A program made the translations under genes and the position numbers. Shown here one piece after another: positions 10,221 through 47,908 of a stretch of 64,000 nt of DNA (the first letter of the stretch is position 1; every line of letters begins with the position of its first letter). Source of the stretch: an uncultured virus (IMG/VR IMGVR_UViG_3300008113_007374) (Duplodnaviria; Heunggongvirae; Uroviricota; Caudoviricetes); the IMG/VR virus record IMGVR_UViG_3300008113_007374. One strand, given 5' to 3'. Below the pieces are notes generated by a model. That model ran no database searches. It saw only the letters and a list, made by a program, of their open reading frames with translations, and was not told the origin of the DNA.

Positions 10221-10223
10221 ATA

Positions 10224-10254: not shown

Positions 10255-10261
10255 ACTTTTA

Positions 10262-11642: not shown

Positions 11643-11664
11643 AAATATCTTTTTGTTTATTTTA

Positions 11665-19766: not shown

Positions 19767-21974
19767 TTAAAAATCTAACTTAATCGGATACTGTTGAATA
19801 CCTTGTCGTTTTTCAGGTGATTGTATCTTCGATATAACCATAAGTTCTTTATCTGCATTGTAAAGTCCAACTTCGGTTACATATGGGTTGGACCCAGTCC
19901 AAGTCGGGTTAGATGAATCAAAGAATTGTGTTTGACCTAAATTACATAAAAAGTTCATTACGTATATTGTTGCTTGAATATCTGTTTGAATATTACCAAA
20001 AAAGAAGTATTCTCCACCAAAATTCAAAGTTAATCCTGAATCATTAAGTGCAGGTAAATTGATATAATTATCTAACCTATATGTTGATGCTGTATCATAC
20101 ATATTTTTAGTTAATTGTAATGTTGTTCCCGTCATTCCTGATTGTGTCATGTAACCACCAATCGTTGTTGCTGAAATTTGTGATGTTACATCGATTTCTT
20201 TCCAAGCGGATGCTGTAGGTCTTGTGGTCCCACTTGAAACTTTTTGTGCAATTAACTTTATACGATTTGCAGTAAATCCACTTGGTGATGTATATGTGTT
20301 TCTTAAGAATGGAAACTCATTACCGAATCTTATAATAATGTCTGAAGCACCTGGTAATAGACTTTGGTCATTTCCTGTAATTGTTGTGTAATAATTACAA
20401 TGTAAAGAATTTGTAAATCCTGTATTTTCAAAGATATACGTTAAAAATAAAGTTTCAGAACTTCCCGTTAATAAACCACTTGTTCCACCTAAAACCCCAC
20501 TAAATGTATTTGGAGTTACCAATCCTAATTTAGGTGCTGGTAATGTCCAAGACCTATTTGATTTGTAATTAAGTGCCGCAACAATTTCATCATCATCAAA
20601 TATAATCATTTTGTAGTCAGGGAATACTTTACCTACTCTATTAGGATAACCATTAGTATTAGGGTTAGTATCCCATAAGTGATAATATCTTAAACCGGGG
20701 TCATTAAAATTAGGGTCTTTTTTAGATTCAATATAATGTGGTTCAAATAAATTAAGACTTGTAAATCCTGATGGGTCTGTATAAAATTCTTGACCTACAG
20801 TTGCTCCTGAATTTTTATGCCACATTAACCAAGGAATACTAATTCTTAAATTTCTTGCTTGACCTGTCCCGCCAGGGTTATTTGGGTCGTATTCTTCTTG
20901 TGCAAATTTTTCTCCATAAAAATTATCGATAGCTTGGTTTGTATAGTGAACAATCGCGATTGATTTTTGGTCTGATGGTGAAAGAATTATTTTATCAGCA
21001 AATGAATTATAATAATATGTTGAGTCGGTGTCTACTTGACCGGTGTTTGAGTTATATCCAAAATATTCTTTTGAACCGGTATATCCTGTTGATTTATAAA
21101 AATTATAATCTTGGTTTGTATTACTGAATACCCCTGCCGGCGATTCAGTCCACGGAATATTCATATTCCAAATATTTACGTTTCTTGCAGAAACATCACA
21201 GTTTGTTTCAAAATTAATTACATCATTTTCCCAATATGGTTCAGGTGTTGTTGTATCATATATTACAGTCATACCACTTGGATAAAATAAAGTTTGGGAT
21301 GTTCCTGTAAGTCCCATTGTTCCTAAGTTAGGTAATTGTCTATCTACTTGTATTGTAACTGTTCCTCCCGTAGAGGTATCACCAGTGACACCAACTACTA
21401 AATAAGTGAATAGAGGTCCCGCATTTTGAACGGGTGAAATCTGACCATTTGTAAATAATGTCATAAACATACCAGGTGTTACTGTTCCTGATACTGAAGG
21501 AGCTAATGATGTCCCCGATATTGTTAAAGTAGTTCCTGAAGTAATACCACTATTTTGCGCAATAAAGTTAGGATTGATTGTATATGCTGAAGTTGTGTAA
21601 GCACTATAAGTGTAAGGTGTCCCTGTACTTGGATTAAAGAATCCTCTTGGTGCCGCACTATTATAAACACTATCAATATATGATGCATCAAATGGGACGC
21701 CATATGTGCTACCCGATGTTGAGTCCAAATAGATTGGATATTTAATTTCCATTCTATTTTTTTGTGGGACTGGCGCTAAATTTTGTGTGTTATATTGTGG
21801 CATTAACACATTTAAATTAACCGGGTCTAAATTGTTTATACAATTATAACAAGCTTCACTATCACCAACTTGGAAGTATGATATATCAAATTTACCTTGT
21901 GATATCTTTTTTCTTCCTGCATCGGTAACAAGTGTGTTAATTAACGCTGCGGTATCTTTAATTATGTATGACAT
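19767..21974 (-). CDS. Virion structural protein (baseplate/tail-fibre attachment)
   Basis: N-terminal VTDAGRKKISQG..FQVGDSE and C-terminal VTEVGLYNADKELMVISK motifs typical of tail-collar/fibre attachment domains. Confidence 0.65.
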   Translation of the reverse strand: MSYIIKDTAALINTLVTDAGRKKISQGKFDISYFQVGDSEACYNCINNLDPVNLNVLMPQYNTQNLAPVPQKNRMEIKYPIYLDSTSGSTYGVPFDASYIDSVYNSAAPRGFFNPSTGTPYTYSAYTTSAYTINPNFIAQNSGITSGTTLTISGTSLAPSVSGTVTPGMFMTLFTNGQISPVQNAGPLFTYLVVGVTGDTSTGGTVTIQVDRQLPNLGTMGLTGTSQTLFYPSGMTVIYDTTTPEPYWENDVINFETNCDVSARNVNIWNMNIPWTESPAGVFSNTNQDYNFYKSTGYTGSKEYFGYNSNTGQVDTDSTYYYNSFADKIILSPSDQKSIAIVHYTNQAIDNFYGEKFAQEEYDPNNPGGTGQARNLRISIPWLMWHKNSGATVGQEFYTDPSGFTSLNLFEPHYIESKKDPNFNDPGLRYYHLWDTNPNTNGYPNRVGKVFPDYKMIIFDDDEIVAALNYKSNRSWTLPAPKLGLVTPNTFSGVLGGTSGLLTGSSETLFLTYIFENTGFTNSLHCNYYTTITGNDQSLLPGASDIIIRFGNEFPFLRNTYTSPSGFTANRIKLIAQKVSSGTTRPTASAWKEIDVTSQISATTIGGYMTQSGMTGTTLQLTKNMYDTASTYRLDNYINLPALNDSGLTLNFGGEYFFFGNIQTDIQATIYVMNFLCNLGQTQFFDSSNPTWTGSNPYVTEVGLYNADKELMVISKIQSPEKRQGIQQYPIKLDF

Positions 21975-22004
21975 ATTTTATAAATATCGTTTTTTATTTT
22001 TTTA

Positions 22005-23603
22005 TCATAATGATGGTGATGCTGGACAAATTGTTCCTGTTTTATTAAGTTGTGTTTTTTGTGGTGTAATGTTTTTATTAATACTTCTACATAAAGATGG
22101 TGTAATAGAAATATTCTGTATTGAAACACTATCAACTATAAATCCATTTAATGGACAACCAGTGGCAACACATGGTGTATTCACATATTGAACTATTGTT
22201 CCTGACGCAACTCCGTTATTTGTTAATTGAACAGTATAAGTTTGAGATGATGCGCTTGTGTTAATAAATCCACCTGAACAACTTGGTCTTGCAGTACTTG
22301 TTCCTGTCACTAAACTTGAACTAATTGGTGTTATAACAGTATTTGGTGATGTTATAGCTGTTATTGAATTTGTTATTGTAGGAACCACAGAAGCGGTATT
22401 AGTACTTGCAGTATAGTTTATATTGAATGTTACTGTCATATTGACCGTAACTCCTGTTGGAAGTGCCGGTGAAACCCCTATAGACCAATTTGTTGTCTTA
22501 CTTGTTGCATTACCATAAGACTGTGGTGTTTGTTCATTTAAATTCAAACTTACCACATAATTTTGTACACTTTGTTGAGGTGTCAGTGTGGTAGTTGTTG
22601 AGTAAACATTACCTACAGAATCTTTGATATAAACAGTGTATGTCCCTACACCTAGACTTGAAAATATGTTTGATGCTTGGTAATTTACCCCATTTAACGA
22701 GTAAGTATATGAAGGGACACCTCCACTACCAGTTAAAACCATAGACCCATTTGTTTGATTTGCACATATTGGATTTGTTGAATTTACTTTAACTTTCAAT
22801 AGTGCGGAAGAACAATTACCCGACAACACCGTTATTGATGTTGTAAATGCACTAGGACCTGTTACTGTCCAATTTCCTGTTGGTGGTGATGTTGGTGATT
22901 GTTTGAAAACGGAACCGTTCGTCCATCCACTTAATAACCATTTTGTTGTTCCTGAACTATAGTATATTTTGTAACTTGGTGTTACACTTGTCCACGACAT
23001 CATACCATTCATTGTTCCCGCAGAATAGAAATTAATTAAAGTTGGTACTGAGTTTACAGTTTGTGTTAAACATAATCCACTTGGTATTACAGGTGGCGGT
23101 GTAACCGGAGGTAAACATTGGCTACAACCCGTATATGGTCCGGCAGATGAAACGGCAAAAAAGTCATAATAAGTTTGACCTGTATGTAATGTAGTTCCAC
23201 TACTTGTCCAACATCCTGTTTGAGTTGTCAATCTGTATACTGAAGATGCACTAAACGGATTATATAAGTCTGCCAAATAATAAACAAAACTACCTGAATT
23301 AGAACAATCTTCAAATTTCTCCAAATAGAAACTATCATAATCGACAGTACAAGTTGTTGTTCCTGTAAAGTCACCATAGTAATCAACTACCGTTGCGGTA
23401 TACTCACCAGGTCCAAGATTTGTTAATAAACTACCTTGTTGACCTCCATTCCATATCACATTATAAGGTGCAGTCCCTCCTGTTATATAAAGAGAAATTA
23501 AACCATTAGTTGTTTGAGGTGTGGAACTATTAATAACATTACACTCAACACCCAAAGGGAAGAGAGTTATTATATTACAACTATTACCACTTAATTGACC
23601 CAT
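22005..23603 (-). CDS. SprB-repeat, Cys/Thr/Ser-rich putative tail appendage protein
   Basis: GGTAPYNVIWN..LGPGEYTATVVD and GGVPSYTYSLNG..LGVGTYTVYIKD repeats. Confidence 0.75.
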   Translation of the reverse strand: MGQLSGNSCNIITLFPLGVECNVINSSTPQTTNGLISLYITGGTAPYNVIWNGGQQGSLLTNLGPGEYTATVVDYYGDFTGTTTCTVDYDSFYLEKFEDCSNSGSFVYYLADLYNPFSASSVYRLTTQTGCWTSSGTTLHTGQTYYDFFAVSSAGPYTGCSQCLPPVTPPPVIPSGLCLTQTVNSVPTLINFYSAGTMNGMMSWTSVTPSYKIYYSSGTTKWLLSGWTNGSVFKQSPTSPPTGNWTVTGPSAFTTSITVLSGNCSSALLKVKVNSTNPICANQTNGSMVLTGSGGVPSYTYSLNGVNYQASNIFSSLGVGTYTVYIKDSVGNVYSTTTTLTPQQSVQNYVVSLNLNEQTPQSYGNATSKTTNWSIGVSPALPTGVTVNMTVTFNINYTASTNTASVVPTITNSITAITSPNTVITPISSSLVTGTSTARPSCSGGFINTSASSQTYTVQLTNNGVASGTIVQYVNTPCVATGCPLNGFIVDSVSIQNISITPSLCRSINKNITPQKTQLNKTGTICPASPSL

Positions 23604-23604
23604 T

Positions 23605-24543
23605 TTATGTGAATTTTTGTGTTATACAACCATATCTTTGGGATGTTCTTCCAAAACCAATAGGTGTTGTTGATGTTTTTTCAAACGTTATTAAATATGG
23701 TGCCGTCAAATTAATTTGATAGACTTCATTTGAATTATTCAATATATAAAATTGGTCGTTTGATTCAACAAATGAACCAACATTAGTTATTCCTGATAAA
23801 TTTATTTCAACTTCTAAAGTTCCTCCTGAAACGTAATCATATTGTTGTAAATAAGTTGAACCTGTATTTGTACCAATAACAATTACTTTATTTTCTGTTG
23901 AAAGTTTCATGTCTCTGATACCAGGACTACCCGATAGAGAACCAACAATTTCAAGAATATTTGTTGTGGACGCAGTTGTCCCTGTAATTACAGCGTTATA
24001 AATATGAGTAGTTGATGTCCCCGTATTTGTCGCCAAGACTAATAAGTTATTGTTATCAATAGCAAAAATTTCTTTATTATCATCTAAATTAATTGCAATT
24101 TCTCTATTATATGTGTTTGAGAAAGGGTCTATTGTTATATCTAATTCTGTAACTCCAGTGGATGATAAGAACCACATTTTATCTTCGGTATTTGCCATCG
24201 GACTGTTGTCTCCTGATGGGGTAATTACTAATGATAATGGTCCTTCTGAGGTATCACTAATAACATTATATTTGTAATAACTGTTTCCATCCCAATAACC
24301 AACAAAAATATTACATCCAACTAAATCAGGTGAAACACAATAACTACATCCATTGGCATCAATAACTTTTACATAATATGTTGTATAACTTTCATATATT
24401 GTAGGTAATGTAAATGTATATGCACTTGTAGAAAACGTATCTATATATTGAGAAGTTCCCCCAACACCACAACTATCACAAACCCACACATTATATGGTG
24501 ATGTTCCTGATACTATTGAACTTACGGTTACATTTATAGCCAT
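23605..24543 (-). CDS. Putative virion appendage protein (small Ig/SprB-like N-domain plus beta-rich C-domain)
   Basis: N-terminus SGTSPYNVWVCD..VKVIDANGC is paralogous to the two ORFs at 29753-30325. Confidence 0.7.
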   Translation of the reverse strand: MAINVTVSSIVSGTSPYNVWVCDSCGVGGTSQYIDTFSTSAYTFTLPTIYESYTTYYVKVIDANGCSYCVSPDLVGCNIFVGYWDGNSYYKYNVISDTSEGPLSLVITPSGDNSPMANTEDKMWFLSSTGVTELDITIDPFSNTYNREIAINLDDNKEIFAIDNNNLLVLATNTGTSTTHIYNAVITGTTASTTNILEIVGSLSGSPGIRDMKLSTENKVIVIGTNTGSTYLQQYDYVSGGTLEVEINLSGITNVGSFVESNDQFYILNNSNEVYQINLTAPYLITFEKTSTTPIGFGRTSQRYGCITQKFT

Positions 24544-26147
24544 TATTTACAGTTTCCGTTTACAGTACAGAATTGTGTTAATTTACCACTTACATCAACT
24601 TTATAGATAAAGTTTCCGTATTGTAAGTAATCTTCTGTTATTGGTTTAGTTAATGATGAATCACTAAAGACATAAACATCCGTAGCAATTTCACTTATTA
24701 AGTTAGAGGTATAGAAAGTATTTTTCTTACCAAAGTCAGTTATTTGACAAACAGGACAGTTCAAGGCGAATCCAAAACTTCCTCTCCATGTGTTATAAGT
24801 TGTAGTAGCAGCAGTCACAGTTAAACAATCTACGCAATCGGTGTATGTCGTGGCAGTAGTTGCTGTAAACTCATTTACGTTTGCAACCACATAACCTGAC
24901 GGAGCAACATATCCAACATAATTTCCAACATAACTATAACAATCACCTGACAATGTTTTTAACACATTACCAATAGTTAAATTTGTTGGTGGATAAGCCG
25001 TTTGTGTTATCATACTATTAGAAGTACAAGATGTAAATACAAACACAGTTCCAGGTGCAAATGTAGGTGTAGGTGTAGGAGTCGGTGTAGGAGTCGGTGT
25101 AGGAGTTGGCGTCGGTGTAGGTGTTGGTGTTGGAGTAACACATGAAACCGAACAATATCCTGTATATGCTGAAATTATGTATTGAATTGATGCGTTTGCA
25201 CTTCCGTTAACATTTTGTGTATATGTAGCACATCTAATGTCATTATTTATTACACCATAGATTGTTGTTCCTGTTGTTGTAACAGTTGTTGCTGTTGAAC
25301 CTGTTAATAATAATGGTCCTGCAACATAATATTTCGTTCCATCATAACAATCAACCAATTCTTTAACCGTCGCACAAACAAAGTTTCCATTATCTACAAT
25401 AAACGTCACGGTATCTGCAGATGGTGTAACAGTTGGTGTAGGGGTTGGGGTTGGTGTCGGTGTTGGAGTAGGAGTTGGTGTTGCTGTCTGATATGTGATA
25501 TTTGCAGTAAAAGCACTACATATATTCGCAGTTGGAGTAGGTGTCGGTGTAGGTGTTGGGGTTGGAGTAGGTGTCGGTGTAGGTGTTGGGGTTGGGATAT
25601 TACACTCCAATAACACATCAAAATCTAAAACTGAACAAGGGTCATATGGTGTTGGTGTTGGAATACAAGCACCTGTTGTCATTACCGTTTCATCTAAATC
25701 AGGACATACTGAAAAAGTTGGATTGGACCCAAAAAATATACAAGAACCACCTAATGAACTACTTAAACACCAATAAGTTCCGTTATAATGTAAATATCCA
25801 GTGCTAGATGTTCCTCCAGTCCAATATGGGTAAGAATTATACCCTCCTTGTATTATATAAGTTCCTCCGTATCCACTATATAAAGTTGTTGGTGCACTAA
25901 TACATAACGTACTTGAACAACATTCTAAACATGATGGATGCGTGCATCCGGTTACTAATGTACCTATTGCAGATATCCCAAATGTTATAGATGTGCCCGT
26001 AACTCCACTGACCACGGTATAACAACCATTTGGCATATTTGGGTCATTTTCAATAGAGTATACCTCATTAACTGAAGCACTAACGGGAAAACTTGTAGCA
26101 CTATATACAAGGTTATAACAACAACTACTAAAAATTACATCAGCCAT
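24543..26147 (-). CDS. Cys-rich virion protein with three mucin-like (Pro-Thr)n linkers
   Basis: PT tracts at ~25062-25137, ~25424-25483 and ~25531-25597; about 28 Cys by hand count. Confidence 0.8.
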   Translation of the reverse strand: MADVIFSSCCYNLVYSATSFPVSASVNEVYSIENDPNMPNGCYTVVSGVTGTSITFGISAIGTLVTGCTHPSCLECCSSTLCISAPTTLYSGYGGTYIIQGGYNSYPYWTGGTSSTGYLHYNGTYWCLSSSLGGSCIFFGSNPTFSVCPDLDETVMTTGACIPTPTPYDPCSVLDFDVLLECNIPTPTPTPTPTPTPTPTPTPTPTANICSAFTANITYQTATPTPTPTPTPTPTPTPTVTPSADTVTFIVDNGNFVCATVKELVDCYDGTKYYVAGPLLLTGSTATTVTTTGTTIYGVINNDIRCATYTQNVNGSANASIQYIISAYTGYCSVSCVTPTPTPTPTPTPTPTPTPTPTPTPTFAPGTVFVFTSCTSNSMITQTAYPPTNLTIGNVLKTLSGDCYSYVGNYVGYVAPSGYVVANVNEFTATTATTYTDCVDCLTVTAATTTYNTWRGSFGFALNCPVCQITDFGKKNTFYTSNLISEIATDVYVFSDSSLTKPITEDYLQYGNFIYKVDVSGKLTQFCTVNGNCK

Positions 26148-26226
26148 TTATGTGTGAAACTTTATTATATAAATAATCAAAAATCTATTTTATTATATGA
26201 TGTTTTATAAAAATAAAATATCTTGT

Positions 26227-27381
26227 CTATTTCCCCATTCTCCGTTTATTATAAGGTTTACTAAAACTTTCCATTTTTACATTTATTTTTGAAACATATG
26301 ATGTTAAATCTTGTCTATGAATTACATTACCTAACTCATCTTCAATACCAATATAAATGAAACTAAAATTTTCAACATAAGGGATTTCAAGTTCTAAGTC
26401 GTATGTATTTTTAGTTTTTAAATACCATTCAGTTTCATCATTAACAGGTGGATTAATTCCCTTGATTGTGTTTTCATGTAAAACTCTTTCTTTAAAATTA
26501 ATTCCAGCGTAAAGTTCATAATCTTTATGTGACCTTACATCACCTAACCCATACTCACCAAGGTCAATATTGTTATCTTCCTCTTGTAACATATGTCTTA
26601 ATCTTCTTTTAGATTCATTATCCATAATCCACCAAGGTTTTTCAACTACACCTTTATTTTTATTTTCGTCGTTGAAATCTGTCCAATGTTTTGTTCTACC
26701 TTCTCTTGTGTATTCATGCCACACAACAGTTTTATGTGGGTGAAATAAATCATAACCTAATGTATATGAACGAATTGATAAACTAATTTCATCACCAGCA
26801 AAGTATATATTTGGGTCATATTTATACTCTTCACAGTGTTTTCCTATAGTAAAAAAGAAATGTCCGCTAACAAATCTTGCGGGAATTGGTTTATCTAAGT
26901 TCTCCCAATTTTCAATAGTGTGGGGTCTAAAAAGAATAGTTCCACCTGGCGTAAAGTTTGAAGCAACCATTTTGTATGGTTCGACATTTAGTAACTTATT
27001 ATCAGATGGTCTATACATGCCAGCATATGCTGTGATGATTGGTTTTTCTGAACCTGTTTGATTCATCATATTAATTAACTCAACATCCCAATCTTGTAAG
27101 AACCTGTGATGTGAATCTAATTGCATGGTATATTCTTCACCTTCCCATAGTTTTTGAATTTCAGAACGAGCCCAACAAAGTCCTTTACTCTTTGACCAAT
27201 GATAATCTAAAACTTTAAATCTTGGGTCATTTGTAAATTCTTCCATTGACTCCGTTTCATCACGTTGCCAACAAATACCAAATGTTAAATTTTCTGGGTA
27301 TTTTGCAGTATTAATACAATCTCTAATAGTTGGTAAAAGTTCGGGGTCTCGATAAGACGCGATTTGTACAAATATTTTCAT
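26227..27381 (-). CDS. Glycosyltransferase, GT60-like (GlcNAc transferase family, Skp1/mucin-type alpha-GlcNAc-T)
   Basis: IFVQIASYRDPE, GLCWARS, QLDSHHRF (DxH), FVSGHFFF, YDPNIYFAGDEI..SIRSYTLGYDLFHP. Confidence 0.85.
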   Translation of the reverse strand: MKIFVQIASYRDPELLPTIRDCINTAKYPENLTFGICWQRDETESMEEFTNDPRFKVLDYHWSKSKGLCWARSEIQKLWEGEEYTMQLDSHHRFLQDWDVELINMMNQTGSEKPIITAYAGMYRPSDNKLLNVEPYKMVASNFTPGGTILFRPHTIENWENLDKPIPARFVSGHFFFTIGKHCEEYKYDPNIYFAGDEISLSIRSYTLGYDLFHPHKTVVWHEYTREGRTKHWTDFNDENKNKGVVEKPWWIMDNESKRRLRHMLQEEDNNIDLGEYGLGDVRSHKDYELYAGINFKERVLHENTIKGINPPVNDETEWYLKTKNTYDLELEIPYVENFSFIYIGIEDELGNVIHRQDLTSYVSKINVKMESFSKPYNKRRMGK

Positions 27382-27427
27382 TATCTTCTTTTGTTAGAAG
27401 ATATGTAATCTATCACGTAAATAAATA

Positions 27428-29725
27428 TTAAGCAATCTCATATGAACCATTCCATACAAAATAATCCCCATCCCCCCAAGCGAATGGTAAAGTCGCATCC
27501 AAACCTGAGCTTTTACCTATGGATGCTGTCGATGGGGCGAGTATTGAACTTTTAGTTGTAAAACCTCCGTAAGCCCCATTCATTAATCCTTGATACCAAT
27601 CAATACCTTGGTCCAAAATTGAAACAGGTAATTGAACTCCTTCCGCAGATGCCGCAACAAAAGGTAATGAGATTTCCCAAGCGCCAGTTCCTCCTGATGT
27701 TGTCGTTCCAAATAATAATTTACCTCTATAAAAACAAGTTTTACCAATAACTTGGTATGCTCCTGTAATAGAACCATTACCTATTGTTGGTTGTGTTCCA
27801 CCATTAGATGACCAAGATGGTGTGAATGATGTCCACGATGATGTTATATTAGTACCACTTAAAACTATTGTTGTAGCAGAAATAGTTGTTGAGGATATCG
27901 TTGGTGATGTTACTGTTGTTGCCGAAAATGTCGTTGCACTTAAACCTGAACTTATGATAGTATTTCCACTCACATGTAAAAGAGCTAATGGACTTTCTGT
28001 ACCAATACCAACATAACCTCTTGTACTACCCGAACCTTTAATAAATAAATCTGAACTATTGGTTGCAGCACTTCCAACCTTAAATTTAACATCTTTTGTA
28101 CCTGTTGTTCCTGATAGTGTAATAATTTGTAAACTATTGTTATTTACACTATTAGTTATAAAGGTATCTCCTGAGACAAAACCCCCACCAGTTGGGTATT
28201 GTTCCCCGTAAGTACCAATACTTAATGATGTATTACCCGCAACAAAAACTTTGGATGTAAATTGTGTACTAGTGCCTGAAATTTGCATCGCACTGTTAAA
28301 AACGGATGGTTTGAATGCAAAAGTTCCATTTGTGGAGGCAAAATCAAATGCAAAACTCGGCACTTTGTTAAACCCTACATATTTGTTTGTTAAGTCAAGT
28401 ACCATTTGATTACTCTGACCAAATATTACGTTTCCTTCATTAAATGGATTAATATATAATGGTGAACATGAATGTATGTTCGTTACATACAAATCAGTGA
28501 CGCAATTTGCAGAAGCTCCGATTGTGTTTGTTGAAATTGTATTTGCAGTAATCCCACTTAAAAATGTTGTAGTTGCTGAAATTGTTCCACCACTAAAAAT
28601 ACCATCCATACCACTCGACCCTGAAGAACCGCTTGTCCCACTACTACCAGATGTACCATTTGTACCACTAGTACCATTTGTTCCCGATGTTCCATCAATA
28701 CCTGATGAACCTGAACTACCACTTGTACCATTAGTTCCTGATAAACCTGAACTACCACTAGAACCATCAGTACCATTTGTTCCCGATGTTCCTGTGACAC
28801 CAGTTATAGGGGACCAACTTGCATAACCACTTGCATCTGATGTTAAAACATATCCTGCGGTGGCCCCTGAAGTCATTTGAAAGTTTTCAGTTTTAAGTCT
28901 ACCTATAACATCAACTTTTTCCGTAGGATTTATTGTACCAAATCCAACAAAACCTCTTGTTGTTCCACTACCTTGTATGTGAACATCAGGTGTTGTTCCA
29001 TTAGCATCTTGACCTGCATAAAATCTGACATAATCTTGTGTGGAACTTCCTTGTCTATTTATTATATTCAAACCATTTGCATCATTGGATGCATACAAAT
29101 GTCCATCTCCGACTGCTCCGTATCCCGGATATGTAACATCTGTCCAAGCCCTCATACCAAACCCCACAGATGCATCAGGGTTGGCTCCCGATGGAGAAAT
29201 TGTTGCAGACATTCTTGGCAAGTTGGTTGAACCTGAAATATCCAAAACACCTCCAACAGAGTTTCTATAATTCAAAACTGATGCACCATTATACAACTCC
29301 AAAGTGTTTGATGGTGAGGTAGTTCCAATACCAATCCTGGCGTTTCCTTGGTCTAAAGTAATACCTGATAATATTCCAAAAAATGTGTTTCCTGTTACAG
29401 TACCTCCTGATAAAGGAAGATATTCACCACTTCCACCTCCACTAGTACCACTTGTGCCATTAGTACCTGAAGAACCACTACTCCCACTTGAACCTGAAGA
29501 ACCACTACTCCCACTTGAACCTGAGGTTCCGTTTGACCCGCTTGTACCGGATGAACCACTACCTGTTGCTCCTGTAATTGCGTTTGCTAATTGTTGAATT
29601 GTTGCTTTGTATGAAGAGCCAGCGGCGTTTTGTGAGGTATCACCTGTTATTACTATGTGAATTAAATCACTAAGAGTTACTCCTGTGGCTAAGGACCTGT
29701 CGGTTAATCTATTATAAGTTGGCAT
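27428..29725 (-). CDS. Tail fibre-like protein with Gly-Ser/Thr triplet repeats
   Basis: Two (GSS/GTS/GTN)n tracts, repeated G(I/F)GT..P motifs, C-terminal WTSFTP..GNGSITGAY..IGK..LPF fibre-tip-like domain. Confidence 0.8.
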   Translation of the reverse strand: MPTYNRLTDRSLATGVTLSDLIHIVITGDTSQNAAGSSYKATIQQLANAITGATGSGSSGTSGSNGTSGSSGSSGSSGSSGSSGSSGTNGTSGTSGGGSGEYLPLSGGTVTGNTFFGILSGITLDQGNARIGIGTTSPSNTLELYNGASVLNYRNSVGGVLDISGSTNLPRMSATISPSGANPDASVGFGMRAWTDVTYPGYGAVGDGHLYASNDANGLNIINRQGSSTQDYVRFYAGQDANGTTPDVHIQGSGTTRGFVGFGTINPTEKVDVIGRLKTENFQMTSGATAGYVLTSDASGYASWSPITGVTGTSGTNGTDGSSGSSGLSGTNGTSGSSGSSGIDGTSGTNGTSGTNGTSGSSGTSGSSGSSGMDGIFSGGTISATTTFLSGITANTISTNTIGASANCVTDLYVTNIHSCSPLYINPFNEGNVIFGQSNQMVLDLTNKYVGFNKVPSFAFDFASTNGTFAFKPSVFNSAMQISGTSTQFTSKVFVAGNTSLSIGTYGEQYPTGGGFVSGDTFITNSVNNNSLQIITLSGTTGTKDVKFKVGSAATNSSDLFIKGSGSTRGYVGIGTESPLALLHVSGNTIISSGLSATTFSATTVTSPTISSTTISATTIVLSGTNITSSWTSFTPSWSSNGGTQPTIGNGSITGAYQVIGKTCFYRGKLLFGTTTSGGTGAWEISLPFVAASAEGVQLPVSILDQGIDWYQGLMNGAYGGFTTKSSILAPSTASIGKSSGLDATLPFAWGDGDYFVWNGSYEIA

Positions 29726-29752
29726 ATCACTTTATAAATATTGTAGAAATAA

Positions 29753-30037
29753 TTATTGAAACACATTAATGTCCCCATCCATGAAAATAAACACATTCCC
29801 ATCTTGGAAACTATAAACTCCACATTCTAATAAATATAATTTCTCACATAAAGTGCCATCTAAAATTTTAAGATAAACCGCAGGAGCATTTGGAAAAAAG
29901 TTATCTGTGTTTATTACCACTGTGGGTGAAAAAGAAGTGACCGCAGTAATAAAAAAACACCCAATATTATTTGAATCACACACATAAATGTTGTATGGGC
30001 TTGTTCCACTAGTTACTCCTGTTACTTCTATTAACAT
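29753..30037 (-). CDS. Small virion protein, paralogue family A
   Basis: SGTSPYNIYVCD..LKILDGTLC. Confidence 0.75.
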   Translation of the reverse strand: MLIEVTGVTSGTSPYNIYVCDSNNIGCFFITAVTSFSPTVVINTDNFFPNAPAVYLKILDGTLCEKLYLLECGVYSFQDGNVFIFMDGDINVFQ

Positions 30038-30325
30038 TTATATCCAAACTAATCTATCCCCACTTTCTGTGGTTATTATGAGTGCCGTCTCAGTTAATAT
30101 AAAAAACGTATCTGAAGGACAATAAACGTATTTAAAAATTAAACATCCCGTACTATCAACAAGTTTAATCAACAATACTTGTGCAGATGAGAAAAATGAA
30201 TTAAGCGTATACGTCGTTCCTGTTGACCCTAACAAAAAACAATTATTCATGTATTGGTCACAAACATAAAACTGATAGGGTGGTGTACCTCCTGTTTCTC
30301 CTGATATGATTAATTGTGATGGCAT
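30038..30325 (-). CDS. Small virion protein, paralogue family A
   Basis: GGTPPYQFYVCD..IKLVDSTGC. Confidence 0.75.
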   Translation of the reverse strand: MPSQLIISGETGGTPPYQFYVCDQYMNNCFLLGSTGTTYTLNSFFSSAQVLLIKLVDSTGCLIFKYVYCPSDTFFILTETALIITTESGDRLVWI

Positions 30326-32619
30326 TAAACGTAGCAGACAACATCATAAACAATACTCAACCCTAAACTAAAATCAGCATCAGATAGTGGGTCTTCATCC
30401 CCATCACAATTTGAATAAATTGTAAGAGTATTATTCAATAGGTTTATTTCATAACTTTGTATTTGAGGGATACCTGATAAAATATTTTCTATTGTTGATT
30501 GCCAAACACTATCTTGTGGAACATCATTTAATGTTGTTGCTGTGTAAAATGTTTGAGTATATGCGGTTCCATTAATATCAACCTCACAAATTAATTCAGC
30601 AGAATTAAATGAACAACCAGTGTACCCTGAAATAATATCTAAATAACCTTCATTCAACATTTCAATTAATCCTCTTTGATTTCCTGATGATGTTGTAAAT
30701 GTGTTAGTACACAAATTAAATGTTTGGTAAGACGTAACTAAATTACCTATACAAGTTATAGTAAAATTTTGAGTTTGGGTACATCCTGATGAATCTGTAA
30801 TTGTTACATCATAAGTCCCTCCACTTAAATTAGTCACAGTTGAACCTGTTTGTCCGTTTGACCAACTATATATGAATGGGGGTGCCCCATCATATATATT
30901 AACAGTCGCTGTTCCGTTATTAGTCCCGTCACAATTGGTGGTTGAAAGTCCTGTTATCAGACTTCCACCTGTTGTTATAGTAAATCCTGTACTTACTACA
31001 CACCCATCAGCATCTGTAACGCTTATTGTGTAACTTCCTGCAGCCAAATCAGTATAAGTAATTGCCGATAATGGTGAATCTATTAGTGTGTCCCCATTAC
31101 TTAAAATGTAATCTAAAGGTGATGTGTATCCCGAACTTACTTGAATAACTGCAGTTCCATTTAATTGACCACAAGTTGAGCCGGTTGTTGTTGCACTAAC
31201 GCTAAATTTAGGTGTTGACGTAACACTCACTTGTTGTTGGTAAACACAACTACTCCCACTACCTGAAATTGTTATCAAATAGTTGTCAGTAACTAAATTG
31301 CTAAAAGTATATGTTTGACTTTGACTTACATTTGATTGTACGTTTCCTGAAGTTTGCCCTGATAACGTATAGTTATAAGATTGGTTAGCTCCTCCAATTG
31401 AAATTTGAATTGAGCCTCCATTGATATTACAAACAGGGTTTGTGACTGATACACCCACAAGGTCAAAACTACCAGGAGTTAAAAGATTACCACTCACTAA
31501 GGTCTGACAATAACTCGCATCTCTAACCAACACTTGGTAATTACCCGCACTTAAACCTGATATTGTGAATTCATCATCTAATGTATATCCAACTAAACCT
31601 GTAGTTGCCGAATAGTAAAGAGGTGAAGTTCCTCCACTTATGGTAAAACTTAATGAACCGTTATTTTGAAAACAACTTGGTTGAATTGCTGTCTGAAATG
31701 CTAACCCTAATGGTAGAGCAACTCCTATTGTTTCTGTTTTTGTTGTCTGACACCCTAAACTATCTGTAACCGTACAACTGTATGTTCCTTGTGTTAGTCC
31801 CGTTATAATTTGTGTTGTTTGCCCATTACTCCATAAGTAAGTATACGGACCTGTACCCGTCATACCAGTTACAGCTAACTTACCCCAATTTAAATCACAA
31901 TTAGATGTATCAACTTTCCAAAATCCAAAATCAACAGCAGTACTAGCACTAACTACAGTATTTTCTGTATAGGCGGTCGCCAATGCGTTATCAACAACAA
32001 TCGCATAATAGATACCATTTGGTAAATTATTAAACGTCTGAGGTAATGTTGCGACACCTACCGTTGAGTCGTAAATACCATCTTTATAAAGTAAAATAGT
32101 AAAAGGTGAGCCCGATGTTGCGGCACTTACTTCGAAATAACCATTATCTATTCCACAAGTTGTACCACTTGTATTAATAATCTTAGCATCAAAACACCCA
32201 CTTATTGTTACATTTATAAAAAGTTCATTGTTTTGAATACCTTGACTATCATTTAACCTAAAAACGTAAGTTCCACCAGTAAGGCCAGTGAAAGTTATTT
32301 GCGTGGTTCCTGTTTGGGCACTTATGGATGGGTCAAAAGTATTATCAATAGTATATGGTGAAATTCCTCCTGTTGGATAAAAAACAATTGTTCCTGTCGC
32401 CGCTGAACAAACTCCAGTTACTGAAAAACTAACGTCTAAAGGACCTTGGTTACAGTTTTGAGTACAGGTCTGACCCGTAGCAATATATACACCAAAAGAT
32501 GTTCCTGTAAATGTTTCGTCTAAACAAATACTTTGACCTACGGAAACACCTGTTTGGGTATTACCACAACAATCCACATAACTAAAAACACCATTCGTTA
32601 AACCTGAAACACAAGCCAT
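30325..32619 (-). CDS. Multi-SprB-repeat adhesin-like virion protein
   Basis: About seven repeats such as GTGPYTYLWSNGQTTQIITGLTQGTYSCTVTDSLGC and GAPPFIYSWSNGQTGSTVTNLSGGTYDVTITDSSGC. Confidence 0.85.
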   Translation of the reverse strand: MACVSGLTNGVFSYVDCCGNTQTGVSVGQSICLDETFTGTSFGVYIATGQTCTQNCNQGPLDVSFSVTGVCSAATGTIVFYPTGGISPYTIDNTFDPSISAQTGTTQITFTGLTGGTYVFRLNDSQGIQNNELFINVTISGCFDAKIINTSGTTCGIDNGYFEVSAATSGSPFTILLYKDGIYDSTVGVATLPQTFNNLPNGIYYAIVVDNALATAYTENTVVSASTAVDFGFWKVDTSNCDLNWGKLAVTGMTGTGPYTYLWSNGQTTQIITGLTQGTYSCTVTDSLGCQTTKTETIGVALPLGLAFQTAIQPSCFQNNGSLSFTISGGTSPLYYSATTGLVGYTLDDEFTISGLSAGNYQVLVRDASYCQTLVSGNLLTPGSFDLVGVSVTNPVCNINGGSIQISIGGANQSYNYTLSGQTSGNVQSNVSQSQTYTFSNLVTDNYLITISGSGSSCVYQQQVSVTSTPKFSVSATTTGSTCGQLNGTAVIQVSSGYTSPLDYILSNGDTLIDSPLSAITYTDLAAGSYTISVTDADGCVVSTGFTITTGGSLITGLSTTNCDGTNNGTATVNIYDGAPPFIYSWSNGQTGSTVTNLSGGTYDVTITDSSGCTQTQNFTITCIGNLVTSYQTFNLCTNTFTTSSGNQRGLIEMLNEGYLDIISGYTGCSFNSAELICEVDINGTAYTQTFYTATTLNDVPQDSVWQSTIENILSGIPQIQSYEINLLNNTLTIYSNCDGDEDPLSDADFSLGLSIVYDVVCYV

Positions 32620-32627
32620 TTTTTATC

Positions 32628-35600
32628 TTAACATATTACGTATCCACTACCAGTGTCTTGGATGTTTATGTAAATACTATTTACACCGCTTACTACAGTA
32701 TAAGTATAGTATGAACTAATTCCACAGTAACCTGTGTATGTACCACTATTATTTCCAGTTCCAAATCTTATATTAAACCCACCTGAATTTAAAACACCAA
32801 TATCTATCACATCACCAATTAAATTAGATGTTGAATAAGTTTGGTAATTTTGTAAAGTCAAAGGTTTATTACCAACTCCTTGATTTGGTATTGTAATCCA
32901 TGCACCTCCATTTATCCTATAAATTAATGTTAATGGTAATGGGAGTAAAACCGGAGACCCTAAGTACATGTTAACAGTTGCGTACGCAGGTGTTGGGGTT
33001 GGTGTAGGTGTTGGGGTTGGTGTTGGGGTTGGTGTAGGTGTTGATGCCGGTGGTGTACAATTAATATCAATATCAACACCGATGTTTAAATATAATGTAC
33101 TAATTGAGAAATTATCATAACAAGATGTATTACTCACTATTAAAGTGTTCCCCGCAAAGTAGTAATTTAACCCATAATTATATAAACCGACTAACTCAGT
33201 ATCAATAGCATTAATTAGTTGAGTTTGAGTTGGGTAATCGTTTATACCATAACCTGTATAAAATTGTTCTTGAACTAATATTTGAGAGTCTAATCTACAA
33301 TCAACATACCAGTTAGAAACAATACTATTTAAATCGCACATGTTTTGTGTAAACCCACTTTGAGACAACAAACTTGCAACTAATGTTTGTAATATTTGAG
33401 AAGGTGTCCCATCAATACTACATTGTAATGTTTGGTCAATACAGTCATAAGCAAATGGTTGTCCCATATACTTACATGGAATACAAGCCACAGGAATAAT
33501 CTGACACCCTCTTTGTCTTCTCCAAACGTATTTTTGTCTATGGAAAATAGAGTTTTCCATTTTTTGACCTGTTAACCATAAAGATGTACCAGGAACAACT
33601 TGTTCCAATAGTCTTTGCCAATAATCACCCAAACCTAAAGTATAATCAATCATTTTTTGGTATGAGAAATTATTTGATGGTATTCCTACCGTTTGTTCTG
33701 AATTTAAATAATTCCAAAAAACAGATTGTAGTGTTGGATAACCTCCTGTTTTACCATCAGTAATTGTTTGTCTGTTTCTTACATTAATAAAATTGTTATA
33801 GAAACTTTGTGCGAACTCAAAGAAAGTTTTTTGTTTTGGTTTTGGGTCAATGTGTGTCCAATCAATATTTCCAGGGTATGGGTATGGTGATGTTAAACCT
33901 GAATTTGGTATTGGGTAATCATACTTAACAGACATGTCCCATATATCATATGTAATACCTTGTCCCATGTTCATATAAAGTTCCAAATTCTTAGAATTGA
34001 TTACCAATTTGTCATTACCAACTGAATAATCAACACCATTAAAGTTATCATTATTTTTTCTTACACCTACATCACTTACTACCCATGATTTTTGGTTGTC
34101 CGAAACACGTCTTAAAGTATAACCCACATTCATGTCAGGGAATTTTCTAAGACTATCCATATACTCCTGACCAAAATTAAATGGTTGAATTTTTGTAATT
34201 AAATAAGGGTTTGAACCACTAAGTGATGAATTTTCGTTATCAGCAATCTCTATTGACCTATGTTTTGGTGTTTGTTCGAACCATCCCGCACCTTTTTGAA
34301 AAAAATTGTCACTTGTTTGTGCAGGGCTTTTAGGGTAACCATCACTATCCACTCCATAGTCATCTAATGTTGTGGTAATACGTCTTATAAACCCACTACT
34401 CGCATAACCTGTATATGTTACACCCTGAACTTTAAAGGTGTTCGTAGGGTCTAAAGCTGGTGCCGTTACAAATTTTGTTCCACCTGATATTGTTGCATAT
34501 TGTTCGGTGAAATTATTAACATTAATTCTAGCATCCGCAACATAAACTATTTCGTTAAATTCCATTAAAGCCTCAGGAGCACCAATAAATCTCATAACAT
34601 ACTCCATAGACCTTCTTGTCCCTTTAGTTTTGTACATGTAAGCAGAATTCAAAATTAAATTCCTATAATATTGATAATTTAATTCTGTTGGTGTCGGGCT
34701 ATTAGTTTGACCTGCATAAATTTGTTGAGATTTTGAACTAAAAACAGAATCTAAAAAATTCTCATTCGTTATTGGTGAAATATTAGGATTAATCCCTAAA
34801 GTTTGAGCCAAATTAAATAATAGTTGCGATGGTATATCATTACCGACTTGGTAATTAACCGAATTCATATATGCTAAACTATCTATAAATTTTTTAACTT
34901 CATCAAAACTTCTACCATAAAGTTGTAAAACCTTTTCAATTTTTTGGTCTTGTGTATCAAATTCTTTGAATGAACCTGTTATTAAAAACCTACTAATTAG
35001 ATTTGTTTTATATTCATCAAGTCTTTCGGCAACTAATTGTAAATTATCCAAATATTTGTTAAATAATGAACTTGTAATATCTAAGTTCCAAAATTTATTA
35101 ATAGGCCAAGTTACACTCTTATTATATAGTGTGTATTTACCTGTTGTGCCATCATATTCGGGATATGAAAAAACGGCTTTATACTTTGGTAAGGTATTTT
35201 GATTAAGTAAGAATTTTTCAACCTCATCAAAGGCATCTCCAAATATTTCTTGAGTTTTACTATTGTTTGGTTTTAAAATTAAAGATTTTGTTGTTGCAGT
35301 TGCGCCACTAAATAAATCACCACTAACACTAACGGTAACCGTACCACCACTCATACTTTGAGTTGGTTCAAAAAATGTTAAATTATATTCTTTATTTAAA
35401 TCTTCAAAATAGATTGAATACTTTTCATATTCAGTAGTCAAAGCCCTTATTGGGTGAACAGGAAACGGTTGGACCGCGATGTTTCTTTCAGCATTAACAG
35501 AAAAATCAATACTAAATGGATTTCTAAATAATCCAGAATCCATATCAAAAGTTGTTTCGTTATTAACTGAATTATAAACAATATTATAAGCAGTAAATCC

Positions 35601-35990: not shown

Positions 35991-36898
35991 TAAGTAATAA
36001 TATTTGTGAAGTTTTTACTGAAGTCTATATTAGCACCCCTATCTTGTCTAACTTCGTATAACAACTCATTAAAGTTATCTCTAACCTCAAACAAGTTGTA
36101 TTGTTTATAGATGTTGTTATTACTATCATATAATGTGTAAATACCGTCTTCCATACTCTTAGTTTGATTACCGTAAAGAGCTATTGCAATCGTATCCAAA
36201 TCGTAATCAGCCATTTGTATATCAATGGTGATTGGATTAAAGAAAGTATTAGATACAATAATTTTTTGATTTGGTTGACCTATAAAAGGTGTTGCTGTTG
36301 GTTTGTTTGTTGGTGAAGAGGATGGTGATAAAGTACAAAATACTAAGTCACTCCCGCCATCAACGTAACGATATCTGATGGTTTTTTGTGATGAATTAAC
36401 TTGTTCATTTGTAATAGGTTCACAAAAAAATGATGAAGTTACTATTCTATAAAAATTTGGTATTTTACTCCCATCTAAATTTAGGTATTCAACTCTAAAC
36501 CCAACTAACCCTTGGTTTGTAAATTTATTTCTGTATTGTGATGGAACATCATTAATATTAATAATAATACCTTTTACATTTGGAAGTGCCGATAATACCC
36601 CACAATCAGTGATAGTTGTTCTTATTTCAGCAGGTTTAATATACAATGTGTAGATTCCTTTTTTGTTAAACTCACTAGCAGGTAATTTTAAATTATATAA
36701 ACCTCCTAAAATTTCTACACCCGAATTACCTCCAGTATCAGCGTTATGGTAATATGGTGTTAAAATACTTTGCGAATTTAACTTTTTAAGAAGAAAATTA
36801 TCCGTTACGTCTCTACTCGGTGTGTAGTGTAATATGATATCAACATCCGCTGGTGATACATCTGAAGGTCTTACAATACCATATGTTCCTAATGCCAT
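35990..36898 (-). CDS. Putative structural protein
   Basis: 302-aa ORF in the structural module, preceded by TATTTATA. Confidence 0.75.
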   Translation of the reverse strand: MALGTYGIVRPSDVSPADVDIILHYTPSRDVTDNFLLKKLNSQSILTPYYHNADTGGNSGVEILGGLYNLKLPASEFNKKGIYTLYIKPAEIRTTITDCGVLSALPNVKGIIININDVPSQYRNKFTNQGLVGFRVEYLNLDGSKIPNFYRIVTSSFFCEPITNEQVNSSQKTIRYRYVDGGSDLVFCTLSPSSSPTNKPTATPFIGQPNQKIIVSNTFFNPITIDIQMADYDLDTIAIALYGNQTKSMEDGIYTLYDSNNNIYKQYNLFEVRDNFNELLYEVRQDRGANIDFSKNFTNIIT

Positions 36899-36930
36899 TT
36901 TTTATTTTATAAATAGTTTATCTGTATTTT

Positions 36931-45603: not shown

Positions 45604-47442
45604 TTATGTAAAATCTACTGAGGTTAGATTTTTAACAAAAACCCTAATGTCTTTATTATCAAATCTAACTTGATATATTTGTGTTGGTTCTGCAAATATA
45701 TTATCATCAATTAATTCTATTTCTTTTGTCGCTTTATTAAGATATCTTTGAGATGTCTCAGAAGTCGAGTATTGTCCCCCAACTTTATTAAACACTTGTA
45801 ATTTACTTAAACTTATAACACCAGCGGTGTTTTGAATTAATCTTCTTATATCCGAAATATTAACATTTTCACCCATATCTCTATTTTCGGGTGACATGTA
45901 ATTTGAAACTTGGTTAATTAGTTCAGTAATAACCTGACCTCTATTAACGCTTGACTCCACAACCACATAGATATCAAAAGCTAAATCAATAACCTTTGCC
46001 ACATCAATTTGTATATAGTCGTTTATCATTCTAAATTTAGAAAGATATGTTGCCAAATTTGTTTTTAAATTGTTTGATACTATTTGTGTTAATTTACCTG
46101 TTTGGTCATAAGACAATATTTGAACTGTTATTTTATTATTGTTTTCTGTAATTGCAACCTTTGCAGGTGCTCCAAATTTTCCTGGCATCGTATCAATTAA
46201 CGATTTATAATCATTAACGGTAACTGCCCTTCTTTGTGCCGCAAAATTAAATGCGACCATGTTTCTAACTTCTTCAGTTGAGGGTGGGTTGGCTCCTCCA
46301 ATTGCTGCAGTTACATTATTCACCACTAAAGAGTTTAACACATTAGAGTTAATAGAATCTGAAGGTCCATTAACCGCAAAATCAATAGTTCCTACTTGAT
46401 TGATTACCCCTACACCAACATTAGACGCTAAACCACCTCCAGTTCTATACTGAACAAATATTGTGGTATTTGGTTGGACGGTAAGTCCAAGTCCAATATT
46501 GTTTTGGTAATTAGCCAAATCTAAATTAATACCTTGTTTTGCAAAATTAGCAAGTTGTATATTAGGTGTTGTTGTTCCTCCACCAAATTGTATTTTTAAA
46601 AAACCTTCAGGTGTGTATTCGGTAATAAATCTGTTTTCAGTTTTAATATATTTACCAACTTTTATACCCGCATTATCTACAGGTTTAGTCGGGTCTTCAA
46701 TAAAAACAGTGTCTTCTGCCAATGCGTCAACTTCATACCATTTATTATTAGCGGTTAAAAACTCTCCATAATTTGGTACATTAGGGTAACTTGTTCCGTC
46801 TCTTTGTATTATCGCATTTACCCCCAATACGTTTCTTTCGGGTAAAAAGAAATTAAAGAATGGGACAACATCGGTTGCGTTTATAACTCTTTTAAAAACT
46901 TTTGTAGTTCCATTAACAACAACCTCTCTTTTGGTAATAATGTAATTTATAATTTTATTATTAGCGTCAAAAGTTGGAACTTTCGTTCTATTAACTTCAC
47001 CTTCTTGATTGTATTGTGTTGAAAAATCAATATCATATACCGTTTCAAATGTAGTTCCTCCACCATTAAATTGCGACCCTGCCCTTAAAATCCCTAAATA
47101 TCTATAATCTTCAGCATCCCCTAAAGGTGGAACTGTAATTGAAATATCTACCACAGCAACAGATGGTCTATACCCCGGTATTTTTAAACCATAAGTTCTT
47201 GCAATATTATAAATTGAAGATTTTTGTTGAGCATATTGTAATACCGTTTCTTGTATACTTCTATCAATATGGTAATGTAAGTTATCTGCGACCGCAGCAT
47301 TCAAATCCATCAAAACCGAAAACACAGATGCGTCGTTAAAGTTTTGAATAAGTTCGGGGTAATACTGTTTAGTGTAATTTATTAACCCGTCTCTTATGGA
47401 TTCAAAATCCCTATCCGTGTAATTAATTTTGTTATTTGCCAT
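45604..47442 (-). CDS. Baseplate wedge subunit (T4 gp6 / baseplate J-like)
   Basis: YTDRDFESIRDGLINY, YRTGGGLASNV and GGANPPSTEEVR..QRRAVTVNDY. Confidence 0.9.
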   Translation of the reverse strand: MANNKINYTDRDFESIRDGLINYTKQYYPELIQNFNDASVFSVLMDLNAAVADNLHYHIDRSIQETVLQYAQQKSSIYNIARTYGLKIPGYRPSVAVVDISITVPPLGDAEDYRYLGILRAGSQFNGGGTTFETVYDIDFSTQYNQEGEVNRTKVPTFDANNKIINYIITKREVVVNGTTKVFKRVINATDVVPFFNFFLPERNVLGVNAIIQRDGTSYPNVPNYGEFLTANNKWYEVDALAEDTVFIEDPTKPVDNAGIKVGKYIKTENRFITEYTPEGFLKIQFGGGTTTPNIQLANFAKQGINLDLANYQNNIGLGLTVQPNTTIFVQYRTGGGLASNVGVGVINQVGTIDFAVNGPSDSINSNVLNSLVVNNVTAAIGGANPPSTEEVRNMVAFNFAAQRRAVTVNDYKSLIDTMPGKFGAPAKVAITENNNKITVQILSYDQTGKLTQIVSNNLKTNLATYLSKFRMINDYIQIDVAKVIDLAFDIYVVVESSVNRGQVITELINQVSNYMSPENRDMGENVNISDIRRLIQNTAGVISLSKLQVFNKVGGQYSTSETSQRYLNKATKEIELIDDNIFAEPTQIYQVRFDNKDIRVFVKNLTSVDFT

Positions 47443-47443
47443 A

Positions 47444-47908
47444 TTATATGTTGATTATCACAAACTGTCTACTACCAAAAGCCCTTGCGTCATTTGTATA
47501 GTCAATTTTTATTTTTGCACTGTACTCTGCAGTATTCGCTCCCGGTATGCGATAAATACTCGCTTGCCCCAATAATTCATAATCCAATTGTCCTGCAACA
47601 TCACCACTATCGTTATATGATTCAACAGTAATACTATTAATTGTAAGGTTAGGAATGTATTTATCAACCTGTTCTTGGATTTCAGCCCTAATTTCTTCAA
47701 AGGTTGCGCCATCTAAAGGTTCAAAAATATATTCATACAATCTTGTTCCAAAATCAGGTAAAAAATATCTTGTTCCTCTTCGGGTCATAAGCAAATGTAT
47801 TAGGTCGGTCCTGATTTCTTCATCAGTCGTTTCCGTCAACTTTAAGTAATTTCCCTTTTCGCTTTGTAAAAATGGAAAATGTATACCATATGTTATTCCG
47901 TTTGCCAT
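47444..47908 (-). CDS. Baseplate wedge subunit gp25-like
   Basis: LIHLLMTRRGTRYFLPDFGTRLYEYIFEP. Confidence 0.9.
   Translation of the reverse strand: MANGITYGIHFPFLQSEKGNYLKLTETTDEEIRTDLIHLLMTRRGTRYFLPDFGTRLYEYIFEPLDGATFEEIRAEIQEQVDKYIPNLTINSITVESYNDSGDVAGQLDYELLGQASIYRIPGANTAEYSAKIKIDYTNDARAFGSRQFVIINI

Follow-up and report, generated by a model that had tools for sequence, protein, structure and literature searches.

A GT60-type glycosyltransferase beside Pro-Thr linkers in the tail block of a freshwater phage: a candidate virion O-glycosylation system

The CAZy family GT60 holds the polypeptide alpha-GlcNAc-transferases of Dictyostelium and Trypanosoma cruzi, and its characterised members transfer alpha-linked N-acetylglucosamine (GlcNAc) onto Thr of mucin-like proteins or onto hydroxyproline of Skp1 (PMC8724618; PMC9472816). 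The glycosylation of virions by phage enzymes is also already known, as phage-encoded transferases have been proposed to coat the structural proteins of mycobacteriophage Che8 and its relatives (Freeman et al., 2023, as cited in PMC11256854), and at least two Schiff-positive virion proteins were reported in the cultured Xanthomonas jumbo phage XacN1, for which phage-encoded transferases were suggested (PMC5852040). Here we examine an IMG/VR record of an uncultured Caudoviricetes virus (IMGVR_UViG_3300008113_007374), the analysed 64,000-nucleotide stretch of which we call the window. An earlier note, made from the sequence without database searches, had proposed that a GT60-like enzyme in its tail module glycosylates Pro-Thr linkers of the phage's own appendages. 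The GT60-type initiator would be the new element here; the glycan of the mycobacteriophages lies on the major capsid protein, whereas the candidate acceptors here are Pro/Thr linkers (PMC11256854). Our literature search, with few subscription papers in its scope, yielded no paper that connects GT60 with phage proteins, although GT60 does appear in a preprint's list of viral auxiliary genes and DNA or cell-wall roles have been proposed for unnamed actinophage transferases (PMC10202952).

The window enzyme matches PF11397 (GlcNAc) in Pfam with an E-value of 1.7e-67 and 228.8 bits against a cut-off of 21, and phrog_24687 in a PHROG search, and the family named in the earlier note is thereby confirmed. 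Three motifs, D89-S90-H91, G196-D197-E198 and W221-H222, are invariant in 35/35 aligned sequences and are also kept in the homologues from Verrucomicrobia and XacN1-type phages, so that the DSH metal motif is indeed intact. We take these motifs to correspond to catalytic residues of the GalNAc-transferases. For an AlphaFold2 model built from 35 sequences (pLDDT 83, pTM 0.79), ppGalNAc-transferases take all of the first 29 places in a structural search (Z 19.3-22.0; next fold Z 17.4), superposing with a root-mean-square deviation of 3.0-3.8 (about 3.4 A) over about 275 residues, and Foldseek agrees (E 1.6e-11). The enzyme, as modelled, is a ppGalNAc-transferase-like GT-A fold related to GT27, although the shared fold does not show which donor or acceptor is used. 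The GT27 enzymes of animals and Toxoplasma are its closest solved fold (Z 19-22), yet are only 13-19% identical, and neither phmmer nor a profile search gave a sequence match in the PDB.

The enzyme shares with the protist GT60 enzymes its PF11397 score above the cut-off, the DxH motif and the absence of a ricin lectin domain (Pfam scan), which sets it apart from GT27, and Thr in mucin-like tracts as the proposed acceptor (PMC8724618; PMC9472816). It differs from them in being phage-encoded, in having its own small C-terminal beta domain and in being soluble. A membrane segment was not found (maximum 19-residue hydropathy 0.66) and the domain begins at residue 3, leaving no Golgi-type N-terminal anchor, nor one such as GT27 has; the enzyme should therefore work in the cytoplasm. 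A difference in length escaped the earlier note, in that the window enzyme has 384 amino acids and its relatives about 398; 23 nt are deleted behind position 26248, which changes the reading frame of the last ~22 codons. The nearest record (99.2% identical) and contigs from 2/2 covering runs retain these nucleotides and a 399-amino-acid frame. Since the gene is intact in all three of these independent assemblies, the deletion is peculiar to the window assembly or strain, and the population gene encodes 399 amino acids. In a quick tree of the enzyme the divergent homologues sit on long, unsure branches, and we therefore claim no direction of transfer.

The enzyme gene directly precedes that of a Cys- and Ser/Thr-rich protein of 534 amino acids, which holds, as (TP)10, (TP)8 and (TP)12, the three Pro-Thr linkers described in the earlier note; when this protein was shuffled 2000 times no TP run exceeded 3, which puts the tracts far beyond chance. 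A fourth tract, (TP)9, is present in a 1120-amino-acid protein (32628-35990) as had been claimed, whereas the name "baseplate" given to that protein finds no support in Pfam, PHROG or NCBIfam; this label, like those of "virion protein" and "appendage" for the 534-amino-acid protein, comes from position near the Baseplate_J and gp25 genes. The tracts of both proteins are written in mixed synonymous codons and are therefore kept as protein, although the (TP)9 is missing from many orthologues and is therefore a dispensable insertion. No signal or membrane segment was found in the phage Pro-Thr proteins. In a predicted trypsin digest the tracts of the 534-amino-acid protein fall in fragments of 262 and 92 residues. 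These linkers are likely the acceptor of the enzyme, a candidate role that comparison of loci supports because of their co-occurrence with the enzyme at (TP)8, the recurrence of the pairing in unrelated lineages, and a genomic slot that is kept while the enzyme lineage within it is swapped.

Regarding synteny, we collected 67 enzyme loci (64 viral contigs and 3 cultured phages, many being near-duplicates of one clade), and in 47/67 the enzyme has a Pro/Thr-rich gene at a distance of 1-2 genes, in 5/67 one farther away. When loci were instead anchored on an unrelated structural gene, the enzyme was inside the block in 54/79; in the other 25 it lay elsewhere on the record (13) or was not on the record (12). 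Eleven of these 12 records are 9-22% complete, and the remaining one, G010 (270 kb, 88%), is uninformative as a counter-example, as both ends of its contig fall within the fibre block, the usual place of the enzyme. In a tree of the structural gene, comprising 60/79 loci and the window (19 were omitted by a start filter), two enzyme lineages alternate in the same slot among well-supported sister phages, one being 73-89% (34 loci) and the other 42-54% (20 loci) identical to that of the window.

Co-occurrence was also assessed from the side of the repeat. Viral loci were collected by repeat alone, with (TP)8, (E/K-P)8 or (G-S/T-S/T)8 as the query and flanking sequence for about 80 loci each, and all counts from this collection hold among the matches listed. 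An in-frame check removed 13/78 Pro-Thr, 27/80 EP/KP and 9/78 GSS loci, after which L238 was added back by hand. The enzyme lies within 10 kb of 7/65 Pro-Thr loci (6 contigs, plus L238) and of 0/53 EP/KP and 0/69 GSS loci. At record level, for contigs of at least 20 kb, the enzyme is present in 9/36 (TP)8 records vs. 1/34 for (E/K-P)8 and 2/42 for (GSS)8, one of the GSS matches also having (TP)8. In the other direction, (TP)4 occurs in 13/21 enzyme-bearing records vs. 0/9 large enzyme-less records. One locus, L199, was dropped from the Pro-Thr set, as in the true reading frame its match encodes Val-Gly. There, (Val-Gly)n tracts, the reverse-complement reading of Pro-Thr, stand with PASTA domains and a possible Hint-like start (9496-11703) right before a GT60 homologue, and may represent an inversion or mis-assembly of a Pro-Thr tract.

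The GSS counts bear on a second proposal of the earlier note, by which the Gly-Ser/Thr tracts of the neighbouring 765-amino-acid fibre would be linked acceptors. The tracts themselves are as long as described, being strict Gly-X-Y of 14 and 23 triplets, but GSS repeats fail to predict the enzyme, and the fibre-like protein varies among relatives, where its co-occurrence shows no link to the enzyme. It is unlikely, in our estimate, that the enzyme glycosylates virion proteins at such tracts or at Ser/Thr-Gly/Ala-x-Thr words, the Pro-Thr tracts being mere linkers of the same module. In ten proteins of the outer structural block (window 19767-38073) the word [ST][GA]xT exceeds its frequency in shuffles about 3-10-fold (for example 27 vs. 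4.5 and 19 vs. 2.2), with the reversed word mostly at chance and no enrichment in the window replication proteins, and it persists in sister loci. Next to the enzyme in other freshwater phages, XacN1-type phages, L197, L227, L238, L257 and Verrucomicrobia, however, the word shows no enrichment, although Pro-Thr tracts do occur in these lineages. It appears clade-specific and not tied to GT60, and because of this lack of enrichment elsewhere is probably served by something other than the enzyme. The second large transferase and NDP-sugar cluster that relatives carry elsewhere could serve it. This cluster (L670 6693-19827 and L656 10108-20000, relatives G003 and G010) contains GT2, GT10/GT11, GT17, FkbM, DegT and GDP-mannose dehydratase or RmlD-like genes and adjoins baseplate-region genes.

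The pairing of enzyme and Pro-Thr tracts is not confined to the window clade. It recurs in the tail-fibre regions of the unrelated phages L227 and L238, in L197 (whose record has WhiB), in the crAss-muzzle-like L257 and in XacN1-type jumbo phages. XacN1 itself encodes a 41% identical PF11397 homologue, ORF334, and about 9 kb from it ORF325 contains TP tracts, which two predicted tryptic peptides of 44 and 30 residues would carry; in the accessible text of PMC5852040, ORF334 is called only a "glycosyltransferase family protein", with no family, sugar, site or acceptor given. As XacN1 encodes a second transferase (GT9), the Schiff stain is not assigned to one enzyme. Recurrence in separate lineages is, to judge from these comparisons, a stronger point than the co-occurrence statistics, because the record samples are not independent.

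The closest cellular homologues, 52-67% identical, are chromosomal in Verrucomicrobia, where the enzyme sits with GT32, sulfotransferase and GT29 genes. A Pro/Thr-rich frame lies within about 8 kb of the enzyme in 6/11 of these loci. In one 5.3-Mb genome all 3 (TP)4 matches fall in the gene adjoining the enzyme and in an 8.5-Mb genome the longest Pro-Thr tract is 2.6 kb from it, while two other genomes have perfect tracts elsewhere. Across L592-L603 such GT60, GT32, sulfotransferase and GT29 clusters stand beside proteins beginning with (Pro-Thr)n, several with RHS-repeat genes, and they possibly act on secreted or RHS proteins as glycosylation targets.

This chromosomal setting could fit an enzyme that acts on host targets, either lipid-linked precursors of surface glycans or host proteins, and so helps to exclude superinfecting phages or to take over the cell. 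The genes downstream of the phage enzymes vary as cassettes, comprising HtrL/YibB, GT2, GT8-like, GT11, GT25, GT32, GT34, sulfotransferase, UDP-Gal mutase and carbamoyltransferase genes; with GT29 added and the carbamoyltransferase aside, these are neighbours typical of surface-glycan loci, and O-antigen-type roles have been proposed for transferase clusters of jumbo phages (PMC7824862). Nonetheless, we regard such a role as improbable, considering that the fold is closest to peptide-acceptor enzymes, that the position in the tail block is kept through the swaps of enzyme lineage, that the enzyme adjoins Pro-Thr genes even in bacteria, and that no flippase, polymerase or membrane anchor stands beside it in the window. 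The window carries the initiator alone. A family of 265 amino acids follows the enzyme in 35 loci, with no Pfam match and with Atlas neighbours that include a "putative glycosyltransferase". In unrelated phages GT60 is repeatedly followed by HtrL/YibB (PF09612, a family of unknown function; L115 5649-6446, L129 3219-4883, L065 17306-18946, L238 2137-2925), which suggests a putative elongating transferase.

A route of Skp1 type, in which a prolyl 4-hydroxylase makes hydroxyproline in the Pro-Thr tracts and the enzyme then glycosylates it, would have precedent in the soluble GT60 members of protists (PMC8724618), and L197, L227 and L257 do have 2OG-Fe(II) oxygenase genes (PF13640) at a distance of 1-2 genes from the enzyme. 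In the window clade, a linked prolyl hydroxylase is mostly missing: PF13640 occurs in only 2/16 records of this clade and XacN1-type phages, was not found in two of the three near-complete relatives (G003, 99% complete, and G031, 96% complete), and no prolyl hydroxylase was detected in the window by the Pfam scan. We thus consider this route very unlikely here, although a host-encoded hydroxylase might supply the first step. In L227 (7472-9075) and L257 (6758-8832), two unrelated phage types, radical SAM/SPASM and 2OG-Fe(II) oxygenase genes stand directly upstream of a divergent GT60 and Pro-Thr proteins.

Several observations weigh against the phage glycosylating its own Pro-Thr linkers. A glycan on the Pro-Thr tracts of the virion is predicted from comparative evidence, and in the accessible text of PMC5852040, the stained bands of XacN1 are not tied to ORF334 or to Pro-Thr proteins. 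The 534-amino-acid protein matches no structural family (Pfam, PHROG, NCBIfam), its Atlas matches are unnamed viral clusters only, and its single-sequence fold failed (pLDDT 34). No Pro/Thr-rich gene lies within 10 kb of the enzyme in 15/67 loci, and 8/21 enzyme-bearing records have no perfect (TP)4; one of these, G025, encodes imperfect TP tracts in six proteins, two of which lie near the enzyme cassette. Conversely, the enzyme is missing from 27/36 (TP)8 records, including 7/9 near-complete ones, and Pro-Thr linkers therefore do not require it. The pooled Fisher p of 0.002 for record-level coupling is an overstatement, the records not being phylogenetically independent. Five fragmentary sister contigs (7-18% complete) have a reversed GT29-like gene in the GT60 slot and no GT60 on the contig, and 4/5 show Pro-Thr tracts of normal length in the block, although at this completeness GT60 may have moved elsewhere in these genomes. 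The gene in question is sialyltransferase-like and on the opposite strand (L097 5222-5824, L098, L110, L676, L677).

Lastly, in a different phage group (L041, L043, L045, L047) GT60 stands among QueE-like, GTP cyclohydrolase and dCTP deaminase genes of the 7-deazaguanine pathway and DNA polymerase genes, and in XacN1 a carbamoyltransferase follows the enzyme, as might be expected were it to hypermodify the bases of phage DNA. Such a function is highly improbable for the window enzyme given a fold closest to peptide transferases, the lack of a hydroxymethylase or TET-like gene among the annotated neighbours in its clade, and two papers on phage DNA glycosyltransferases that do not mention "GT60" or "PF11397". 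The DNA of XacN1 was moreover mapped by digestion with BssHII, NaeI and SpeI (PMC5852040).

On balance, what the earlier note proposed stands as to family, Pro-Thr synteny and co-occurrence, to which a ppGalNAc-transferase-like fold can be added. A Pro/Thr-rich gene accompanied the enzyme in most of its loci and the pairing recurred in unrelated lineages, whereas most (TP)8 records lack the enzyme and the GT29-slot contigs show none. Gly-Ser acceptors and hydroxyproline were not supported. We consider it reasonably probable that, before the virion is assembled, HexNAc (N-acetylhexosamine) is transferred in the cytoplasm to Thr in the Pro/Thr linkers of outer tail proteins, and that cassette enzymes extend the chain in relatives; judged by comparison of loci, the phage probably sugar-coats its own particle. 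Late in infection, a soluble retaining GT-A enzyme of GT60/GT27 type would be made in the host cytoplasm and, with UDP-HexNAc and Mn2+, would place a first sugar onto Thr (or Ser) of Pro/Thr-rich linkers in the phage's own outer tail proteins, above all the neighbouring 534-amino-acid protein. Exchangeable transferases encoded downstream, together with decorating enzymes, may lengthen the chain in relatives. The outcome would be stiff, protease-resistant, sugar-coated stalks, by analogy with the O-glycosylated Pro-Thr linkers of bacterial cellulases, in which glycosylation of the same repeat is tied to stiffness and protease resistance; those proteins are secreted and mostly galactosylated, whereas the phage proteins would be modified in the cytoplasm (PMC5939190). 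A broader proposal, which we offer tentatively and with some doubt, is a cytoplasmic prokaryotic pathway of mucin-type O-glycosylation common to several unrelated phage lineages and to Verrucomicrobia (there beside RHS and N-terminal Pro-Thr proteins), in which a GT60 initiator would work with exchangeable elongating and decorating cassettes (GT29, GT11, GT32, GT25, sulfotransferase, HtrL/YibB-like, carbamoyltransferase), HtrL/YibB and the 265-amino-acid family acting as elongating transferases, to give variable "glyco-types" of tail appendages.

The window is part of a large T4-like phage, with genes for ribonucleotide reductase, DnaB, a RecA/UvsX-like protein, gp32, primase, SbcCD, a sigma-70 factor, Baseplate_J and gp25 (Pfam and PHROG profiles) and a GC content of ~31%. 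DNA near-identical to it is contained in 18 freshwater metagenome runs; no RNA data set was listed among those containing the region, and two sets of raw reads barely covered it. Its relative G003 is 292 kb, and a bS21 gene is present in 3/5 relatives tested, including the two closest long ones, and was not found in the 23%-complete nearest record. Because this size and bS21 fit the freshwater myoviruses encoding bS21, which are ~293-331 kb with 31-34% GC and predicted Bacteroidetes hosts (PMC9723584), the Bacteroidota host suggested in the earlier note is plausible but indirect. There is no evidence for the glycan mimicry toward Bacteroidota that it also envisaged, which cannot be general, as the pairing is found in Xanthomonas phages and other lineages.

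The features of the block are listed in Table 1; all open reading frames lie on the minus strand where the earlier note had placed them. The TATTTAT motif is where it was reported, but it is weak as a conserved promoter of the enzyme, being near the enzyme start in 16/60 orthologues. In the window the coding strand carries 30 copies against 15 on the other strand, and 11/46 gene starts have a copy no more than 60 nt away (minus-strand sites include 21986, 26175, 27427, 29740, 36915, 45549 and 47920); the motif is a possible, weakly conserved candidate for a late-promoter element. The fibre gene is preceded by two small paralogues of 94/95 amino acids (29753-30325), which share conserved C-terminal motifs and belong to a family present in 40 loci, in some cases with Pro-Thr insertions.

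Table 1. Features of the tail block and their positions in the window.
Feature	Position	Strand	Remarks
GT60-type (PF11397) glycosyltransferase, soluble	26227..27381	-	GT-A catalytic domain at amino acids 1-~320 and small C-terminal beta domain
Frameshifted C-terminal tail of the enzyme	26227..26248	-	23-nt deletion; catalytic domain unaffected
534-amino-acid Cys- and Ser/Thr-rich protein, three Pro-Thr linkers, candidate acceptor	24543..26147	-	virion role predicted from position
(Thr-Pro)10 tract, amino acids 186-205 of the 534-amino-acid protein	25533..25592	-	
(Thr-Pro)8 tract, amino acids 223-238 of the 534-amino-acid protein	25434..25481	-	
(Thr-Pro)12 tract, amino acids 338-361 of the 534-amino-acid protein	25065..25136	-	
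(Thr-Pro)9 tract, amino acids 984-1001 of the 1120-amino-acid protein	32988..33041	-	
765-amino-acid fibre-like protein	27428..29725	-	collagen-like Gly-X-Y (Ser/Thr/Asn) tracts at amino acids 57-98 and 309-377; Collagen and tail-fibre matches (Pfam, PHROG)
TATTTAT motif	27421..27427	-	40 nt upstream of enzyme start; also before several neighbouring genes
Baseplate_J-like and gp25-like wedge genes	45604..47908	-	mark the block as a tail/baseplate module (Pfam, PHROG)

Very few examples of virion glycans made by phages are known, and little is understood of the chemistry that initiates them. The proposal is directly testable, as the cultured phage XacN1 has the enzyme, Pro-Thr tracts, stained virion bands and deposited raw virion proteomics (PXD008065; PMC5852040). 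If it is true, a small soluble enzyme would be available for producing O-HexNAc peptides in bacteria, many orphan phage transferases would gain a function, and mucin-type O-glycosylation would be extended to the prokaryotic cytoplasm by an initiator of protist type in widespread freshwater phages.

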